A stretch of DNA of 64,000 bases, taken from Clostridia bacterium. Lineage in GTDB: Bacteria; Bacillota; Clostridia; Oscillospirales; CAG-272. Below are positions 906-15,979 of the stretch, one piece after another; the first letter of the stretch is position 1, and the number at the start of each line of letters is the position of its first letter. The stretch spans positions 10,060 through 74,059 of the forward strand of contig JAFQPI010000014.1 in assembly GCA_017411805.1 (NCBI GenBank), written 5' to 3'. The translations under genes were made by a program, and so were the position numbers. The notes beneath the pieces are model-generated. The model worked only from the letters and a program-made list of their open reading frames with translations, searched no databases and was not told the origin of the DNA.

Positions 906-1919
906 TTAATTAAACTTCTTAGAATTTTCTTCTCTTATCGTGTCGAAATGTCTGGAGCGGACTCTTCTGAACGCCTCGCAGGTCGCAGCCCACGCGCGCT
1001 CGCAGCATTCGCTCTTGTACGTATTCGACTCGCTTCCGCGGAATGCCCAGGAAATGAGTGTGCGTGCGCCCGCGTCGTATGCGGCGTCTGCGGCAACGAT
1101 GATCTCGTCCTCGTGTCCGCGGGGAATGTCGTAGCCCTGGATCCAGATGTGATTCTGTTTTCCGATCGCGCTTGTCTCCTCGATAATTTGCTTCGAGGAC
1201 TTGTAAACGTACTCGTAAGGATCGCGTTTACCGCTCTTGGGATGCCAGTAGGGGTCGATTCCGAAGTCGTTGAGGGTCGGGATGGTCATTATCTTCTTCG
1301 CGTAATCAAGGGTGTGGAGCATTACGCAAACGCTGTTCTCGATGCCCATCGATGCCGCGTAGGAGCAGACGGTGTCAAAGTAGCGGAGAAGAGAATCAAT
1401 TCTGAATTCGCGCATCTCGTCGGTCATTTCGGTAGGCATAGGATGACCGTACTTTTCTTCAAATAGCTTTTGACAGGTCGGGCAGCAGCAGGAGAAAAGC
1501 TCTCCCTTCTGCTTGAAGTGGGGCTCGTCCCAGAAGATTTTCTTGCCGCCGAAGGATGCGACAGCTTCGATCCAATTTTTTGTGAAAGATACGAACGCGG
1601 GCGAGTTGTAGCAGGCGGAAACGGGGTCGATCGAGCCGTCCGAGTAGACCTGATGTGCCTCGGGATGGTACTGCAGAAAGTGCGATTTGTCACCGGGAGG
1701 GCCTCCGATGCCCCAGTTGTCGATCCAGACCTCGAGTCCGTTGTACTCCGAAATCTTGCATATCTCATTCATTACGCCAAGGTGGCGGTCCCAGTCGTTG
1801 TGCGAGAACATATGGACGACGACGTCCATATTCTGACGCGCCATTTCTGCCATATCGTCTGCGACGTGGCGCAGTATTCGGTTGCCGTGGTAAGCAGCGC
1901 CGGTTCTGATTCTTTCCAT
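906..1919 (-). CDS. hypothetical protein, possibly a glycoside-hydrolase-like TIM-barrel enzyme
   Basis: Long ORF with SD AAAGGAG before the ATG at 1919. The earlier ATG at 1952 would overlap the upstream gene. A CCCPTC cysteine cluster is present. I do not recognise the family with certainty. Confidence 0.6.
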   Translation of the reverse strand: MERIRTGAAYHGNRILRHVADDMAEMARQNMDVVVHMFSHNDWDRHLGVMNEICKISEYNGLEVWIDNWGIGGPPGDKSHFLQYHPEAHQVYSDGSIDPVSACYNSPAFVSFTKNWIEAVASFGGKKIFWDEPHFKQKGELFSCCCPTCQKLFEEKYGHPMPTEMTDEMREFRIDSLLRYFDTVCSYAASMGIENSVCVMLHTLDYAKKIMTIPTLNDFGIDPYWHPKSGKRDPYEYVYKSSKQIIEETSAIGKQNHIWIQGYDIPRGHEDEIIVAADAAYDAGARTLISWAFRGSESNTYKSECCERAWAATCEAFRRVRSRHFDTIREENSKKFN

Positions 1920-1932
1920 ACCCAAAACTCCT

Positions 1933-2697
1933 TTATTCTTCGTAGTCATCATAGGATTTCATTCCCTGCATCTTCGAGATCGGCTTGAAGCCGTCGATCT
2001 CGCCGCGCTGTATCGCGCCGAAGATTCGGTAACGCAGACCCTTATTATTGCGTTCGATCGAGGCGAGAAGCTGCTTCATATTCTCGCGCTCGGTATTGCC
2101 GTCCGCGGGACAGGTCGAGGTTACCACGGGAAGATCGGTCTTGGACGCAAAATATCGCACGTCCTTTTCGGGCATATAGATGAGGGGGCGGATGACGGTT
2201 ATATCCATTCTTGATAGGTAGGTCACGGGCGAGAACGTGCCGATGCGACCCTCAAAAAAGAGGTTCAGCATAAAGGTTTCGACTACGTCGTCAAAATGAT
2301 GACCGAGCGCCACTTTGTTGCACCCTGCCTCCACAGCGGCGGTGTTTAAAGCTCCGCGGCGCATTTTGGCGCAGAGAGAACAGGGATTCGGCTCTCGTCT
2401 GACGTTGAAGATGATTTTCGATATCTCGGTCTTGACGATCTTGTACTCAACGCCGAGCTTCTCGCAGTATTCGGCAACGGGAGAGAAATCCATTCCTTCG
2501 AGTCCCATATCGATGCTGATGCCGATGATCTCGAATCTCTTCGGATAGAAGCGTCTGAGCCCCGCAAGGGCGGTCAGGAGCGCGAGAGAATCCTTGCCTC
2601 CCGAGATACCGACGGCGATCCGATCGCCGTCCTCGATCATATTGTAATCGTCCACGGCGCGGCGCGCGTGGCTGAGAAGTCTTTTGGTCTCGCTCAT
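1933..2697 (-). CDS. ttcA: PP-loop ATPase, tRNA 2-thiocytidine biosynthesis TtcA family
   Basis: SGGKDS PP-loop motif, a PCSLCAKMRRG Cys motif, and a length of about 250 aa. Confidence 0.8.
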   Translation of the reverse strand: MSETKRLLSHARRAVDDYNMIEDGDRIAVGISGGKDSLALLTALAGLRRFYPKRFEIIGISIDMGLEGMDFSPVAEYCEKLGVEYKIVKTEISKIIFNVRREPNPCSLCAKMRRGALNTAAVEAGCNKVALGHHFDDVVETFMLNLFFEGRIGTFSPVTYLSRMDITVIRPLIYMPEKDVRYFASKTDLPVVTSTCPADGNTERENMKQLLASIERNNKGLRYRIFGAIQRGEIDGFKPISKMQGMKSYDDYEE

Positions 2698-10724: not shown

Positions 10725-10792
10725 GCGACTAGTGACGGAAAAAGTGACCAGTGACTAGTGACTAGTGACTAGTGACTAGTGACTAGTGAATG
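10725..10792. repeat. heptad tandem array (GTGACTA)n, left
   Basis: Five perfect GTGACTA units at 10751-10785. Degenerate units flank them: GTGACCA, GTGAATG, and GCGACTAGTGACGG further left. Confidence 0.9.
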
Positions 10793-11028: not shown

Positions 11029-11068
11029 CACTAGTGACTAGTGACTAGTCACTAGTCACTAGTCACTA
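11029..11068. repeat. heptad array (SACTAGT)n forming a perfect 34-bp palindrome, right
   Basis: CACTAGT GACTAGT GACTAGT CACTAGT CACTAGT CACTA. I checked the palindrome 11030-11063 base by base. It starts 10 bp after the stop codon of the 11074-12480 gene. Confidence 0.9.
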
Positions 11069-12625: not shown

Positions 12626-13510
12626 ATGAGAATTGCAGTATCTTCAAAGTTTGCAGAGAGAGCCCGAGAAGGCGTACTTGGATCGAAAGAAAGCTTTTCC
12701 CTCGTGAAAAATGCGGGCTTCGATGCTCTTGAGATAGATCTTTCAAGAGGGATCGGCGGCGCGGCTCTCCGGTCGGATAATTGGAAGGACGGGATGATCT
12801 CGATCCGAAATGCCGCAGAAGCTAATGGGTTGGAGATCGTTTCCGCGCATGCACCGCATGACCCGAGGTTATATATCCCCGAAACCGAACCGTCGGCTGA
12901 GGAAAGAGCTTGCTTTGACGCTCTGCTTGTTCGCTCAGCCGAGGCGGCAAAGCTTCTTGGCGCGGGTATTCTCGTCGTTCATCCTGTTGACGATCTGATA
13001 AATGCGGAGTACGACAGCACGGTAAATCTTGAAACGAATAAAAAATACCTCGGCGGAGTTGTTGCCGAGGCAGAGAAGTATGGAATAAAGATCGCGGTTG
13101 AGAACGTCTACTATTCGAGCGCGTATCGTCTTCGCCGCCGCTACGGTGAGAGCTCGGAGGACGTTATCAAGCTTGCGGACGCGTTAGGCGCGGGAATTTG
13201 CTGGAACTGCGGACACGCTCATCCGGTGACGATGGATCAGGCGCGTGCCGTCAAGAAGATCGGCGAGAGGATGATCCTTATGCACCTCAGCGACAGCCGC
13301 GGACATACGGACGCGGGACTGCCCCCGATGATCGGCGGCGGAAATATCAAATGGGAGCAGATCATGCCCGCGGTCGCCGAGATCGGATATGAGGGTTACG
13401 CGGTCCTTACCGCCGAAAGCTATCTTCCCATGATGCCAAGAGTACTCCAACCCGATGCCGCCGCTTTCGCAAGAACTGTTTGCCGCAGACTCGAGGAGTT
13501 GGCGAGATAA
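12626..13510 (+). CDS. sugar phosphate isomerase/epimerase (xylose isomerase-like TIM barrel)
   Basis: Family-typical blocks: GFDALEI, ILVVHP, IKIAVEN, HLSDS. Confidence 0.8.
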   Translation: MRIAVSSKFAERAREGVLGSKESFSLVKNAGFDALEIDLSRGIGGAALRSDNWKDGMISIRNAAEANGLEIVSAHAPHDPRLYIPETEPSAEERACFDALLVRSAEAAKLLGAGILVVHPVDDLINAEYDSTVNLETNKKYLGGVVAEAEKYGIKIAVENVYYSSAYRLRRRYGESSEDVIKLADALGAGICWNCGHAHPVTMDQARAVKKIGERMILMHLSDSRGHTDAGLPPMIGGGNIKWEQIMPAVAEIGYEGYAVLTAESYLPMMPRVLQPDAAAFARTVCRRLEELAR

Positions 13511-13548
13511 AACAAAATCACCGCGCGGAGCGCGGTGATTTTGTTTTT
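13506..13548. terminator. palindromic repeat T, copy T3 (bidirectional terminator)
   Basis: GATAAAACAAAATCACCGCGC-gga-GCGCGGTGATTTTGTTTTT. It overlaps the stop codons of both convergent genes and is identical over 43 nt to the copy at 15606-15648. Confidence 0.85.
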
Positions 13549-14656
13549 AGAATTCCTTTTTGTTTCCTATAAAGGGTTTGTATTTTGCGATGATTGCTTC
13601 CATTTGCGGCAAATCCTTCAATTTCTGATATGATGTGCTGCCAATAAGGTTATCAAGTTCACGTGCCACGTCGTTCTTTTCCGTTCCGGAGTTTATGTTG
13701 TGAGTGTCAAATACGTTACCTCTCACGAGAAAAGACGTGTGCTTGGTTGTTTGAGGCAGATCGTCGTATGCTTTAGCGTATTTCAGTCCTTTTTCGAAAT
13801 TTTCAAAAGCCGAATCATAATTATCCAAATACGTGTATCTGTGAGCTATCCAAATATGTAATTCGCTCAAATGATAATTCCAGAACCCGTAATCTTCGTC
13901 GTCAAATATCAGCTTAATCATTGAGATTGCTTTTTTTAGAATACGAATGGATTCGCGCGGTTCCTTCGTTTCCAAAGCCATATTGCGAATATCCACAAAA
14001 ATATCCTCAGCAAATTTTGCTATTTTGGTACGAACTTGCGCCCACCAATCATCGCTGCCTTTTTCAAAACATCCCAGAAGCTCTTCCTCCTGTGTGAATT
14101 CTAAACTCGGGAATCGTTTGGCGGTCTCAATGGCTTTGTCCATCCTACCGTCAATCACATATAAACTACCGAGAATTGACAGCGCGGAGTATCGCACTTG
14201 ATCTACCGCACATTCATCCAGCACCCGTTCGCAAAGACGGTAAAGTTCTTCCTTGTGTACTTCGTTACCGTATGGGTCAACGCAGTTGGGATCATAGTAG
14301 AGCTTCCACATATAATCCTCCACGATTCTCCAATCATTGGGAAACTCCTCGTAAGCGGACACGATCAGATCAAAAGCTTCGCTCTCTTTGCCAAGAGCGC
14401 AAAGCCTGTTTCGCTCATTTATGATTTCTTGGATTCTTGCTTCGGTTTTAGCGGCATCCAATCCGAGCAGTTCGTCGGTGGATACGCCGAAATAGGATGC
14501 AAGCGGTAGTACCATACTGATATCGGGAAGAGTTTCGTTACGCTCCCATTTAGAAACGGCGGTTGTTGAAATATGCATACGTTCCGCAAGCTTTTCCTGA
14601 GTAATACCCTTTTGTCTGCGAAGGCGTTTGATGTTTTCGCCAATGTAAAGATTCAT
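13547..14656 (-). CDS. XRE-family HTH regulator with C-terminal TPR-like helical repeat domain (RNPP-like architecture)
   Basis: N-terminal HTH_3 block IKRLRRQKGITQEKLAERMHISTTAVSKWERNETLPD. About 300 aa of Y/W/L-rich helical repeats follow. The gene is AT-rich. SD GAGGT. Confidence 0.8.
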   Translation of the reverse strand: MNLYIGENIKRLRRQKGITQEKLAERMHISTTAVSKWERNETLPDISMVLPLASYFGVSTDELLGLDAAKTEARIQEIINERNRLCALGKESEAFDLIVSAYEEFPNDWRIVEDYMWKLYYDPNCVDPYGNEVHKEELYRLCERVLDECAVDQVRYSALSILGSLYVIDGRMDKAIETAKRFPSLEFTQEEELLGCFEKGSDDWWAQVRTKIAKFAEDIFVDIRNMALETKEPRESIRILKKAISMIKLIFDDEDYGFWNYHLSELHIWIAHRYTYLDNYDSAFENFEKGLKYAKAYDDLPQTTKHTSFLVRGNVFDTHNINSGTEKNDVARELDNLIGSTSYQKLKDLPQMEAIIAKYKPFIGNKKEF

Positions 14657-14704
14657 CTTGTTTACCTCGTTTCACGAAAATTTGTCACCGGTGTTTTCGG
14701 ATAT

Positions 14705-14733
14705 ATTATACACCATTAATGAAATTTCCGCAA
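14705..14733 (-). promoter_or_regulatory. sigma-A promoter for the HTH-TPR gene
   Basis: Minus strand: TTGCGG, 17 nt, TATAAT. It lies within the decayed four-helix-bundle gene remnant. Confidence 0.55.
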
Positions 14734-14766
14734 GAGAAGGATACGCCATAGGATTTAACCGACGGT

Positions 14767-14844
14767 TTAATAATTCAAGCGTTGTTCTGCATAAATGTTC
14801 GCGAAAATGCTTGATGAATACACAAGTAACGGATTTTTTGCCAT
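14767..14844 (-). pseudogene. decayed copy of the four-helix-bundle protein gene
   Basis: Encodes MAKNPLLVYSSSIFANIYAEQRLNY followed by a stop. The first 10 codons and the SSS-FANI block align to the intact copy at 15068-15421, with about 28 codons deleted and downstream decay. Confidence 0.7.
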
Positions 14845-14866
14845 AGATATCGCCTCGCATCTTAAT

Positions 14867-15029
14867 CACGCGTAAGCGTGTATGGAATCCGCAGCTTGCT
14901 GCGGTATGGAATTGCGACGAAGTCGCGAATGGAATCAAGCCGCAGAGATAATACACCAAGGTGATGCCATACGGCTGCGCCGATGCCATACACGCTGAAG
15001 CGTGATTCCATACCAAGCCTGCGGCTTGG
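14867..15029. repeat. structured repeat R, copy A (hairpin ladder; candidate ncRNA or protein-binding array)
   Basis: Seven short GC hairpins are separated by 8-nt linkers: TATGGAAT x2 and AATGGAAT, then ATGCCATA x2 and ATTCCATA. Nearly identical to 15444-15606. Confidence 0.85.
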
Positions 15030-15068
15030 ATAAAACAAAATCACCGCGCGGAGCGCGGTGATTTGTTT
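15029..15068. terminator. palindromic repeat T, copy T2
   Basis: Same palindrome as T1 and T3, with a shortened T-run (TTTGTTTC). Confidence 0.8.
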
Positions 15069-15421
15069 CAACTTTGTTTTAATTTGTTTTCTATTGTAAT
15101 GCAGGAGGAGGTTAACATTCTGCGTATTCTACCGCAAAGATTACGGTATTCCTTAAAAGTCACTTCGTCGATGCCTCCGGAAGAAAGGATCAATTTGAGC
15201 CAACTCTCGGTTTCCATACATTCCTTTCGGGCAATTTCGAATTTTGAGAGCATATCGGCAAGACTCTGAGGATACTGTGCTTCCGAAATGTTGGCAAATA
15301 CGCTTGATGAAGACTTTTTGATCTGGTATGCAGCATTTGAATCTATTTTGTGATTATTACAAAGAGCCGCAATTTCACATGCCAGTACTTCTGAATACTC
15401 AAGTAACGGATTTTTTGCCAT
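15068..15421 (-). CDS. four-helix-bundle protein (23S rRNA intervening-sequence protein / Avd-like family)
   Basis: Family-typical core QIKKSSSSVFANISEAQYPQSLADMLSKFEIARKECMETESWLKLI. 117 aa. SD AGGTGA lies 5 nt before the ATG at 15421. Confidence 0.8.
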   Translation of the reverse strand: MAKNPLLEYSEVLACEIAALCNNHKIDSNAAYQIKKSSSSVFANISEAQYPQSLADMLSKFEIARKECMETESWLKLILSSGGIDEVTFKEYRNLCGRIRRMLTSSCITIENKLKQS

Positions 15422-15443
15422 AGATATCACCTCGCATCTTAAT

Positions 15444-15606
15444 CACGCGTAAGCGTGTATGGAATCCGCAGCTTGCTACGGTATGGAATTGCGACGAAGT
15501 CGCGAATGGAATCAAGCCGCAGAGAAAATACATCAAGGTGATGCCATACGGCTACGCCGATGCCATACACGCTGAAGCGTGATTCCATACCAAGCCTGCG
15601 GCTTGG
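15444..15606. repeat. structured repeat R, copy B
   Basis: Differs from copy A at 5 substitutions within R. The repeat unit actually spans 15392-15648 versus 14815-15068, a period of 577 bp. Confidence 0.85.
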
Positions 15607-15648
15607 ATAAAACAAAATCACCGCGCGGAGCGCGGTGATTTTGTTTTT
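15606..15648. terminator. palindromic repeat T, copy T1
   Basis: Its 43 nt are identical to T3. It directly abuts the partial tRNA 3'-end copy. Confidence 0.8.
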
Positions 15649-15674
15649 GGTGACCCATCGGAGACTCTGAACTC
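15648..15674 (-). repeat. partial duplicate of tRNA-Lys 3' end (T-arm plus acceptor plus CCA)
   Basis: TGGTGACCCATCGGAGACTC(T)GAACTC matches 15808-15833 with one inserted T, in the same orientation. Confidence 0.85.
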
Positions 15675-15769
15675 ATGTGTGCGGATTGAATTTGTGCGCA
15701 AGTGACATTGGTACTGCCGCACACTATGGCGAGCTAAAGCTCGCAGAGTTCTGAGTCTTTAGAGTTAGC

Positions 15770-15807
15770 AATAAGAAAACGCCTCGCTTTGCGAGGCGTT
15801 TTCTTAT
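15770..15807 (-). terminator. rho-independent terminator of tRNA-Lys
   Basis: AATAAGAAAACGCCTCGC-ttt-GCGAGGCGTTTTCTTATT, immediately after the CCA end. Confidence 0.8.
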
Positions 15808-15883
15808 TGGTGACCCATCGGAGACTCGAACTCCGGACACCTTGATTAAAAGTCAAGTGCTCTACCGTCTGAGCTAATGGGTC
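15808..15883 (-). tRNA. tRNA-Lys (anticodon UUU), CCA encoded
   Basis: Hand-folded cloverleaf GACCCATTAGCTCAGACGGTAGAGCACTTGACTTTTAATCAAGGTGTCCGGAGTTCGAGTCTCCGATGGGTCACCA. Anticodon stem is CTTGA/TCAAG and the loop is CTTTTAA. Confidence 0.9.
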
Positions 15884-15898
15884 ATTTGAGACCAATAT

Positions 15899-15927
15899 AT
15901 GATACCACATTTTGCCCCGTTTGTCAA
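15899..15927 (-). promoter_or_regulatory. sigma-A promoter of tRNA-Lys
   Basis: Minus strand: TTGACA, 17 nt, TATCAT, with TGG upstream giving an extended -10. It ends about 15 nt before the tRNA 5' end. Confidence 0.7.
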
Positions 15928-15979
15928 CACTTTTCAGAAAAAATATTCGTTTTTTTCTGAAAAAGGTGTAAAACGGGGC
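15914..15979 (-). terminator. long hairpin terminator downstream of the 15988-16881 gene
   Basis: GCCCCGTTT...AAACGGGGC encloses CTTTTCAGAAAAAA / TTTTTTTCTGAAAAG. It overlaps the tRNA promoter -35. Confidence 0.6.

Follow-up and report, generated by a model that had tools for sequence, protein, structure and literature searches.

The stretch analysed here, 64,000 nucleotides of contig JAFQPI010000014.1 from a Clostridia bacterium (assembly GCA_017411805.1; "the window" denotes the whole of it), contains on its minus strand a tRNA-Lys gene followed by an array in which a palindromic terminator (T), a ladder of hairpins (R) and a gene for a four-helix-bundle (4HB) protein occur twice in tandem. 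Read 5' to 3', the order is promoter, tRNA-Lys, terminator, a spacer of ~90 nt, a 27-nt copy of the tRNA end, T1, R_B and the gene 4HB1, and then T2, R_A, the remnant of a second gene (4HB2), a promoter, a gene for a helix-turn-helix regulator with tetratricopeptide-like repeats (HTH-TPR) and T3. Every element that an initial annotation, made from the letters alone, had placed in this tRNA-linked array is present. We read the segment as a tRNA-Lys operon with two T-R-4HB modules, one after the other, in its trailer, and R is a conserved, strongly constrained and uncatalogued structured element tied to tRNA genes and to genes of the Avd family.

Underlying the tandem organization is a direct repeat of 250 nt (14815-15064 and 15392-15641; period 577 nt, 98% identity) that extends from T across R to the tenth codon of the 4HB gene; the initial annotation had described a hairpin ladder repeated with this period. 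The tRNA-proximal copy, R_B (15438-15609), scores 188.3 bits against a covariance model of the family (R1) on the minus strand and 56.7 bits on the plus strand, and the second copy, R_A (14861-15032, minus strand), scores 194.9 bits and is 98% identical to R_B. The two differ by C/T, G/A, A/T, C/T and C/T. Four of these substitutions fall within R proper (15441-15605 in R_B, 14864-15028 in R_A), one turning a C-G pair into U.G in hairpin hpB, one breaking a pair in hp3 and two lying in a loop or joint; the fifth lies outside R in the Shine-Dalgarno region, which reads GAGGUGAU before the intact gene and GAGGCGAU before the remnant.

R is built of a helix, X:X', that encloses three hairpins with YAUGGMAU linkers and is followed by three to five hairpins with AUUCCAUAC linkers, three of them in R_B. 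On the tRNA-sense strand its 5' part consists of AUC, X (CCAAGCCGCAG), GGCUUGG and the three hairpins, each preceded by an 8-nt linker (YAUGGAAU, YAUGGCAU and UAUGGCAU, respectively), and its 3' part of a U-rich joint, X' (CUGCGGCUUG), the AUUCCAUAC-preceded hairpins, GAUU and a Shine-Dalgarno sequence. R directly adjoins T at its 5' end and the ribosome-binding site at its 3' end. The motif AUUCCAUAC is the reverse complement of GUAUGGAAU, and the 5' and 3' linkers are thus complementary. The linkers are nearly invariant, whereas the hairpin stems vary yet stay paired.

Pair counts made on 22 canonical copies of R support this architecture: 91-94% of the cells assigned to pairs form pairs, compared with 22-44% when the partners are slid, and 65 cells have changed on both sides of the pair, a number reached by none of 500 shuffles. 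Compensatory changes preserve the enclosing helix at five related loci (cited here by L numbers), namely L071 (X CAAGCCGAC, X' GUCGGCUUG), L073 and L105 (X CAAGACCGAAG, X' CUUCGGUCUUG), L079 (X CAAUCCAAAGG, X' CCUUCGGAUUG) and L125 (X CAAGCCGACGG, X' CCGUCGGCUUG). A local hairpin, P0, which the 5' arm of X forms with GGCUUGG, covaries in L040 and L079, and since P0 and X:X' both covary, two mutually exclusive pairings are kept. The computed energies of a fold with X:X' and hairpins and of one with P0 and a ladder of paired linkers lie within a few kcal/mol of each other, and these two folds, like one of local hairpins only, are all ~20 kcal/mol above the minimum free energy (MFE) fold. The MFE fold itself, which pairs hp1 with hpC, is opposed by covariation in L001/L032, L029 and L089. 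An anti-Shine-Dalgarno role for hp3, whose AUCACCU pairs with AGGUGAU in the window and not at other loci, was rejected as a general property of R. The array region has folding z-scores of -7.2 (tRNA strand) and -6.6 (opposite strand); model R1 gives 188-195 bits on the former and 57-58 bits on the latter.

A census of R, begun as a pattern scan across one genome per species and extended by BLAST and a covariance model, found ~35 copies in ~30 genomes, all of them metagenome-assembled genomes (MAGs) of uncultured Clostridia, Oscillospiraceae or 'Eubacteriales', from ruminant and other animal guts. A tRNA gene lies upstream on R's strand in 22 of the 26 first copies with enough upstream sequence, at a distance of 31-43 nt in 16 loci and of ~200 nt in six (five tRNA-Lys loci with a 160-bp insert and one tRNA-Glu locus, L126), and the linked tRNAs carry seven anticodons (Lys-UUU, Met-CAU, Glu-UUC, Glu-CUC, His-GUG, Ser-UGA and Ala-CGC). 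In 15 of 28 loci R is followed, after 8-80 nt, by the start of an intact 4HB gene, and several loci without an intact gene retain a decayed 4HB start (L064, L074). The linkage to 4HB genes that the initial annotation had proposed to look for in related genomes therefore exists, but the linkage to tRNA genes is tighter; its suggestion of a self-duplicating cassette needs revision, the unit being no peculiarity of this locus but one member of a family that stands behind at least seven tRNA anticodon types in ~30 genomes. The ROOL and GOLLD RNAs are also placed next to tRNA genes, as R is.

Several copies of R can occur in one MAG, all of them found behind tRNA genes or 4HB genes, and longer contigs repeat the order promoter, tRNA gene(s), palindromic terminator, R and 4HB gene, with tRNA-Lys in L001 and tRNA-Met plus tRNA-Glu in L005-L010. 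Neither terminal inverted repeats nor target-site duplications are visible at the borders of R, and model R1 detects no copy in the rest of the 64-kb window. A pattern scan of metagenomes returned three loci, L253 among them, and a scan of viral contigs for the linker pattern returned one chance match inside a coding repeat, a looser pattern giving noise only. A search of the window with Rfam 15 at gathering scores matched the tRNA alone, with no rRNA, and relaxing the threshold to E values up to 10 across 14600-15950 gave no credible match for R. We also found no description of arrays of this kind in the literature on PF05635, TIGR02436 and IVS proteins (proteins encoded in intervening sequences, IVSs). 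As a separate observation, L098 carries at 1900-2450 (minus strand) two one-directional arrays of five and ~10 units, each unit a variable hairpin plus UAUGGMAU or UAUAUCAU, without a reverse-complement half and without a tRNA or 4HB gene nearby, downstream of a protein-coding gene.

The sequence of R is conserved beyond what its surroundings would predict. In a comparison with relatives, R was 85% identical to the window copy and the coding region 75%. Across the orthologous tRNA-Lys loci L074, L021 and L252, identity to the window is 96% for the tRNA, 96-100% for the copy of its 3' end and 82-90% for R, as against 66-71% for the spacer, 54-62% for the sequence after R and 43-61% for the two terminators. 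R is likewise 84-85% identical to its counterparts in L001, L024 and L005, where synonymous divergence (dS) in the 4HB gene is saturated. Because the identity of R outlasts that of its neighbours and that of saturated synonymous sites, we conclude that R is under a constraint of its own.

The intact gene 4HB1 (15068-15421, minus strand) encodes 117 amino acids, its frame being readable also from a GTG at 15430. The initial annotation had likened the product to proteins of 23S rRNA IVSs, and profile searches bear this out: the protein matches PF05635 (E 7e-18; 65.2 bits, curated cut-off 33.8) and TIGR02436 (E 3e-19; 69.1 bits, cut-off 24). A monomer structure model (mean predicted confidence, pLDDT, 95.4) has four helices and aligns with template modelling (TM) scores of 0.82 to 2rld, 0.83 to 2gsc and 0.73-0.76 to Avd (4dwl) and to Avd in the ribonucleoprotein (RNP) of a diversity-generating retroelement (DGR); the nearest PDB entries, 2rld and 2gsc, are pentameric, with five chains. 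The PF05635-type family has a conserved motif, R/K-x3-S-x3-N-x2-E (PMC3936711). The window protein carries it as KKSSSSVFANISEA, and its S, N and E are invariant in our 4HB alignments A4 and A5. The ratio of nonsynonymous to synonymous substitution (dN/dS) is 0.02-0.09, with synonymous sites saturated relative to L001, L024 and L005. On this sequence evidence, the 4HB protein is functional and under strong purifying selection. The second gene survives as a remnant (14793-14844, minus strand) that we delimited by alignment with L253, in which the gene is intact: a start codon and 10 codons are followed by an 84-bp deletion, 22 retained nucleotides and a deletion of ~266 bp that also took the terminator, so that its earlier description as a decayed gene was correct.

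The 4HB protein has a great many close homologues (78-91% identity), mostly on short contigs, and protein searches with two 4HB subfamilies returned over 10,000 relatives; both subfamilies have thousands of near-identical relatives, most of them on contigs shorter than 3 kb. Such short contigs are the pattern expected where a repeated element, or an adjacent tRNA gene or R, breaks short-read assemblies. To our knowledge, PF05635 proteins outside DGRs have no known function, and their odd homes, in rRNA IVSs and cas operons, have never been explained. PADLOC gave no match for the 4HB protein. Genes of PF05635 wedged inside cas operons have been described (PMC3936711), a placement that fits a small hitch-hiking gene.

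A second 4HB subfamily, 40% identical to the window protein and very abundant, sits 3' of a rumA/TrmA-type m5U methyltransferase gene in L126, L254, L255, L260, L264, L265 and L267, and it is preceded by a leader, R'', that shares no sequence with R and has the same plan. The 5' part of R'' comprises X (AAGUUUGCC), a loop, GGCAA and three hairpins with GUGAAGUU linkers, and its 3' part comprises X' (GGCAAACUU), three to four hairpins with AACUUCAC linkers and a Shine-Dalgarno sequence. The AACUUCAC linkers are again the reverse complement of GUGAAGUU; in X:X', a U-A pair is replaced by C-G in L254, and the helix is extended in L126 and L267; and the hairpins carry tandem G.A/A.G mismatches, where the other strand would give C.U/U.C. 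No terminator lies between rumA and the array at these loci. In L263 a unit of this subfamily and R'' follows a serine recombinase gene rather than rumA, and in L260 a short HTH gene and an AP_endonuc_2 gene come after the R''-linked 4HB gene. Arrays that lie 3' of 4HB genes in L076 (2948-3165) and L005 (4430-4560) use a third pair of linkers, GUAUAUCAU and AUGAUAUAC, the L005 array consisting of a 3'-type half only; the L076 array is preceded by a tRNA-Glu T-arm fragment and occupies the position that an R-type array has in L059. The complementarity of 5' and 3' linkers is therefore maintained in three lineages.

Several features of these loci bear on how the 4HB gene is transcribed. In nine of 11 loci the tRNA gene is immediately preceded by a promoter with a score of 11-12 of 12, no promoter-like site was found between the tRNA end and the 4HB ATG in any of the 11 loci scanned, and the orientation of R relative to the tRNA and 4HB genes is fixed. 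With no internal promoter and a near-consensus promoter before the tRNA, the simplest reading is that the 4HB gene is transcribed from the upstream unit. We hypothesize that transcription would start at the strong tRNA promoter, that read-through of T would yield an R-4HB transcript, and that R on this tRNA-sense RNA would serve as a cis leader of the 4HB message and as a processing and stability element. That R is the RNA leader for a 4HB gene that has no promoter and relies on transcription of the tRNA is the reading we favour from gene order and sequence comparison, and we judge its chances to be about even.

A number of observations weigh against it. An efficient terminator at T would leave little transcription from the tRNA promoter to reach R and the 4HB gene. 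Copies of R without a 4HB gene score 206-210 bits (L064, L021, L074), as high as any, which argues that R is not merely a 4HB leader, and one-directional arrays exist (L098). In the stems, G.U and A.C stand at ~5 to 5 after manual curation (7 and 16 in the raw counts), and with the two in balance, covariation does not fix the strand of R. The halves of R mirror each other even in their loops (GAA vs UUC), a symmetry that could reflect palindrome dynamics at the DNA level. X:X' and the local hairpin P0 compete for one 5' arm, and the linkers are invariant within the R family, so covariation cannot bear on the scheme of linker pairing, including the other pairings that RNAalifold proposed (L1:L2' and L2:L3). 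Finally, the 4HB protein is roughly neutral in charge, by a hand count of residues, unlike the basic Avd.

By analogy with Avd, R might in addition be the binding platform of the 4HB protein, in autoregulation or in an RNP, although we consider it doubtful that the protein binds R. Avd (PDB 4dwl; DGR RNP 8ub7) has the same fold, as the TM scores above indicate, and the Avd pentamer binds a structured RNA that is encoded adjacent to the avd gene, which is the basis of the RNP idea here. In contrast to Avd and its DGRs, the array has no reverse transcriptase and no pair of template and variable repeats, and the 4HB protein is ~15% identical to Avd and, by the same hand count, not basic. A DGR as such was rejected, there being no reverse transcriptase among the 55 open reading frames (ORFs) of at least 120 amino acids that were scanned in the window and no adenine specificity in the differences between R_A and R_B.

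Under the favoured leader reading, the module would be to tRNA operons what the IVS, home of the PF05635 gene family, is to 23S rRNA. In Leptospira and Coxiella burnetii, an IVS of the 23S rRNA carries an S23p (PF05635) ORF, and the work on Coxiella describes the element as selfish, excised by RNase III and with an ORF prone to decay (PMC4990558). This is the closest described arrangement to ours, sharing with it the protein family, a gene without its own promoter, a stable-RNA transcription unit and a strongly paired neighbouring sequence, and the decay-prone IVS ORF is paralleled here by the 4HB2 remnant and the R-only loci. The differences are that our array lies in a tRNA trailer behind a terminator, not within a 23S rRNA helix; that a ladder of many hairpins precedes the ORF, where the IVS has a single flanking stem; and that the 4HB gene is under strong purifying selection. 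We also entertain, as a rather improbable extension, that R-type arrays and PF05635 proteins together constitute an unrecognised class of RNPs or cassettes, in which an Avd-like pentamer would sit on a modular and possibly two-state RNA (P0 and linker pairing versus X:X') riding on stable-RNA units (tRNA trailers, 23S IVSs and, for R'', the rumA operon), with protein subfamily and linkers co-evolving.

The alternative that survives best holds that R is a selfish modular DNA repeat, similar to BOX or to the REP (repetitive extragenic palindromic), BIME (bacterial interspersed mosaic element) and REPIN (REP doublet forming a hairpin) repeats, that has settled behind tRNA terminators and whose hairpins act in single-stranded DNA or as passive stabilisers of RNA ends. 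The 4HB gene would then be a hitch-hiker in a safe niche or the cargo of an autonomous form, and R-only copies would be derivatives comparable to solo long terminal repeats or miniature inverted-repeat transposable elements; we grant this explanation a real though minor chance. It accounts for R-only copies that are structurally intact, for unit numbers that vary from three to five alongside tandem half-arrays and one-directional arrays (L067, L098), for private variants common to copies of one genome (L059a with L074; L103 with L107), for R-4HB-R arrangements in the window, L059, L076 and L029/L067, for halves that are mirror images down to the loops with no bias of G.U over A.C, and for 4HB homologues that lie mostly on contigs shorter than 3 kb, as assembly-breaking repeats do. 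Against these stand the lack of visible terminal inverted repeats or target-site duplications at the borders of R, of any transposase or RAYT (REP-associated tyrosine transposase) gene in the window and of any R copy elsewhere in its 64 kb; the fixed orientation to tRNA and 4HB gene; the occurrence of R at orthologous tRNA loci in many genomes, with 82-90% identity where neutral neighbours keep 43-71% and dS is saturated; and R'', unrelated in sequence and equal in architecture, at the syntenic rumA-4HB locus.

The comparison with known repeats is similarly divided. Pneumococcal BOX elements have the composition boxA-(boxB)n-boxC, and the enterobacterial REP, BIME and REPIN elements are modular intergenic repeats. 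R resembles them in its modularity, its variable number of hairpins, its position near gene 3' ends and terminators, its several copies per genome and its partial homogenisation, but it is tied to tRNA and 4HB genes in a fixed orientation with no RAYT or transposase gene nearby, and its hairpins vary around invariant linkers, the reverse of what is seen in REP.

The tRNA gene that heads the array, and the insert behind it, have a history of their own. The tRNA-Lys gene (anticodon UUU; 15808-15883, minus strand) was called by ARAGORN and by the Rfam tRNA model (70.9 bits), and its sigma-70-type promoter (15899-15927, minus strand; TTGACA, a 17-nt spacer, TATCAT and an upstream TG) has a scan score of 11 out of 12. 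Directly 3' of the tRNA, an inverted-repeat and terminator scan places a palindromic terminator (15764-15814, minus strand; arms 15764-15787 and 15791-15814) that is 43-55% conserved in L074, L021 and L252 and yet always a hairpin. It forms the first part of a 160-bp insert that continues with a spacer (15675-15763, minus strand) in which two hairpins can be read from the sequence, and a direct-repeat scan adds the 27-nt copy of the tRNA-Lys 3' end, from T-arm to CCA (15648-15674, minus strand); tRNA, terminator, hairpin spacer and copy are thus all confirmed as first annotated. The insert is common to L085, L074, L021 and L252, with 66-94% identity in the spacer, and partly to L065.

The 27-nt copy is 96-100% conserved in relatives, compared with 43-71% for the surrounding non-coding DNA. 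The intact tRNA abuts T directly in L001, L071 and L029, just as the 27-nt copy abuts T1 in the window, which suggests that the copy marks the ancestral junction of tRNA and T1 and that the 160 bp are an old insertion that rebuilt the tRNA 3' end. With its duplicated tRNA end the insert looks like an old attachment-site scar, and the copy may persist because the real tRNA end converts it, or because it acts as a tRNA-like signal for processing, in the manner of the E. coli tyrT/rtT repeats. The trailer of E. coli tyrT contains 178-bp tandem repeats with the tRNA 3' end, the rtT RNA (Rfam RtT, RF00391) and a small ORF, tpr, all co-transcribed. It is the nearest analogue of the tRNA-linked repeat, as BOX is of the modular build, and neither has a sequence or model match with R. 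The likeness lies in the order of a tRNA gene, tandem repeats, tRNA 3' copy, structured RNA and small ORF; the differences are that there is no sequence similarity and no RtT match even at E values up to 10, that the ORF encodes an unrelated protein, and that the tRNA 3' copy here belongs to the separate 160-bp insert.

The three copies of T had been taken for one perfect palindrome. T1 (15606-15648; repeat and palindrome scans), an A-tract, an 18-bp perfect hairpin and a T-tract in the shape of a bidirectional intrinsic terminator, is identical to T3 (13506-13548; repeat scan), which lies between the converging stop codons of the HTH-TPR gene and a xylose-isomerase-like gene, over all 43 nt, and the 18-nt arms are perfectly complementary around a 3-nt loop; only T2 (15029-15071; repeat scan, and terminator scan with 12 pairs), which overlaps the 4HB1 stop codon, falls short of the claim, at 88% identity, and it differs solely at one end, in the A/T tract. 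The core of T has no further copy in the 64 kb, and shuffles give 0 matches. T also holds the T3 position in L253 and L085. Between genomes, T is 47-61% conserved in sequence and keeps its hairpin shape; it qualifies as a Rho-independent terminator, and a hairpin of this kind with a different sequence follows the tRNA at every related locus. T thus behaves as an ordinary intrinsic terminator and not as the conserved recombination site that had been suspected. Its A-tract and T-tract are present at every locus; the tRNA-Lys terminator, which is not linked to R, is as symmetric, and so the symmetry is a local style of terminator.

Downstream of the modules lies the HTH-TPR gene (13547-14656, minus strand), which encodes 369 amino acids. 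Its annotation as an XRE-type regulator holds for the HTH domain (HTH_3, E 1e-16, 61 bits), while the TPR assignment is weaker, the TPR_8 and TPR_2 matches falling below the Pfam cut-offs. RNPP-type peptide-sensing regulators combine an N-terminal XRE HTH with a C-terminal TPR array and a cognate peptide gene, and of this layout the profile scan supports the HTH here. A probable promoter of its own (14705-14733, minus strand; TTGCGG, 17 nt, TATAAT), read from the sequence, falls below the four-of-six rule that our scan applies to the first hexamer and is identical in L253, where the gene is 95% identical (808-1914). We therefore treat the gene as an optional neighbour with its own promoter rather than as the end member of the array that the initial annotation saw in it. 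An XRE-HTH(-TPR) gene follows a 4HB gene in three tRNA contexts (the window and L253; L001, 3712-4779; L024, 3869 onward), and these HTH genes of the window, L001 and L024 are only 27-33% identical, whereas the accompanying 4HB proteins are 87-89% identical to that of the window.

Comparison of the tRNA-Lys locus in close relatives, which the initial annotation had called for, revealed both expanded and reduced arrays: two units in L253, one in L085 and none in L065. L253, 93-95% identical to the window, has 4HB1, T, R, an intact 4HB2 with a normal terminator, HTH-TPR, T and the isomerase gene, and the window differs from it by the two deletions inside 4HB2. L085, the closest genome, has tRNA-Lys, the 160-bp insert, T, R, 4HB1, T and isomerase, a single unit with no HTH-TPR; the 1.5-kb block that it lacks (R_A, the remnant and HTH-TPR) lies exactly between T2 and T3, which are direct repeats. 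In L065, a truncated R beside the isomerase gene is all that is present, and L074, L021 and L252 have R followed by other genes. Such variable content identifies the locus as a hot spot. As far as these alignments indicate, recombination between the repeated copies of T and of R adds or removes units, and this explains the differences between the window and its relatives. Homogenisation of R_A with R_B is probable, given an identity of 98% between them and of only 77% between the gene remnant and 4HB1.

The same facts could be read as a site-specific cassette array or a decayed mini-island at a tRNA attachment site, with T (or R) as the recombination site of integron-like cassettes composed of R-4HB or R-4HB-HTH-TPR, but we find this distinctly unlikely. 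The direct repeats of T do bracket exactly the block present in the window and L253 and absent in L085, the 27-nt tRNA copy lies 160 bp downstream of the real end, and the second array of L076 has a fragment of a tRNA T-arm in front of it. The presence and absence of the block, however, would follow equally well from homologous recombination between 43-nt repeats; no integrase or other recombinase occurs among the 55 window ORFs; T is not conserved between genomes (47-61%); and R lacks the R/L box layout of attC sites. Of the attachment-site island proposed for this tRNA, what stands is the 27-nt duplicate that looks like a scar, and what falls is its relation to the array, for the duplicate flanks only the old, shared 160-bp insert upstream. 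An integron offers a likeness in its promoter-less genes, each with a folded, imperfectly palindromic site, set in tandem behind a fixed platform with variable content; it was rejected, as the window has no recombinase, IntI included, and no attI or attC boxes, and T is an ordinary terminator unconserved across genomes.

It appears very unlikely that R instead represents a small RNA running antisense to the tRNA and 4HB gene, for which the symmetric T would be the terminator. The A-tract and T-tract at every locus and the strong folding of both strands (z -7.2 on the tRNA strand, -6.6 on the opposite one) would suit it, but no promoter-like site lies on the plus strand downstream of R, the antisense strand scores 57 bits with model R1 where the sense strand scores 190, the sense strand alone is compatible with the tandem G.A motifs of R'', and the tRNA terminator is equally symmetric without any link to R. 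That the 577-bp repeat is an assembly duplication, a concern raised by the 98% identity of R_A and R_B, is a negligible prospect, because the units differ downstream (one gene intact, the other a deletion remnant), L253, an independent metagenome contig, shows both units in this order, each with an intact gene, and tandem R-4HB-R arrangements occur in unrelated MAGs.

The Pfam-matched ORFs of the window are ordinary chromosomal genes, including those for DnaE, PrfA, MurB, WhiA and HolB, and 13 of the 55 ORFs have no Pfam match at E<=1e-5 (12 at 0.01). None of the 55 matches integrase, transposase, reverse transcriptase, cas, recombinase or RAYT families, in keeping with the initial annotation, which had set the locus apart from DGRs, retrons, integrons and CRISPR arrays; the array is none of these. 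CRISPR arrays alternate conserved repeats of 23-47 nt with unique spacers; such an array was rejected here on dimensions, the conserved units being 8-9 nt long (the linkers) and the variable palindromes 11-18 nt, and on the absence of cas genes in the window; the best CRISPR direct-repeat score, 22.6 bits against a gathering score of 37, lies outside R. A BLAST search of phage and plasmid collections with the 1.2-kb unit gave matches confined to the tRNA. The array segment was rightly called AT-richer, although the difference is modest, with a GC fraction of 0.44 compared with 0.50 for the 64-kb window and 0.55 for the isomerase gene. Elsewhere in the window, tandem arrays of the heptamer (ACTAGTG)n and its reverse complement (10728-10789 and 11029-11068, the second switching to (ACTAGTC)n) bracket a 240-bp AT-rich hairpin segment (GC ~0.34) between a GntR gene and a gene for a 468-aa secreted protein.

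R adds a candidate RNA family that is lacking in Rfam, drawn from abundant uncultured Clostridia of the gut and rumen. As a constrained element at PF05635 genes with a twin of unrelated sequence, it offers a testable handle on the binding of protein to leader, on expression by read-through and on mobility in this protein family.

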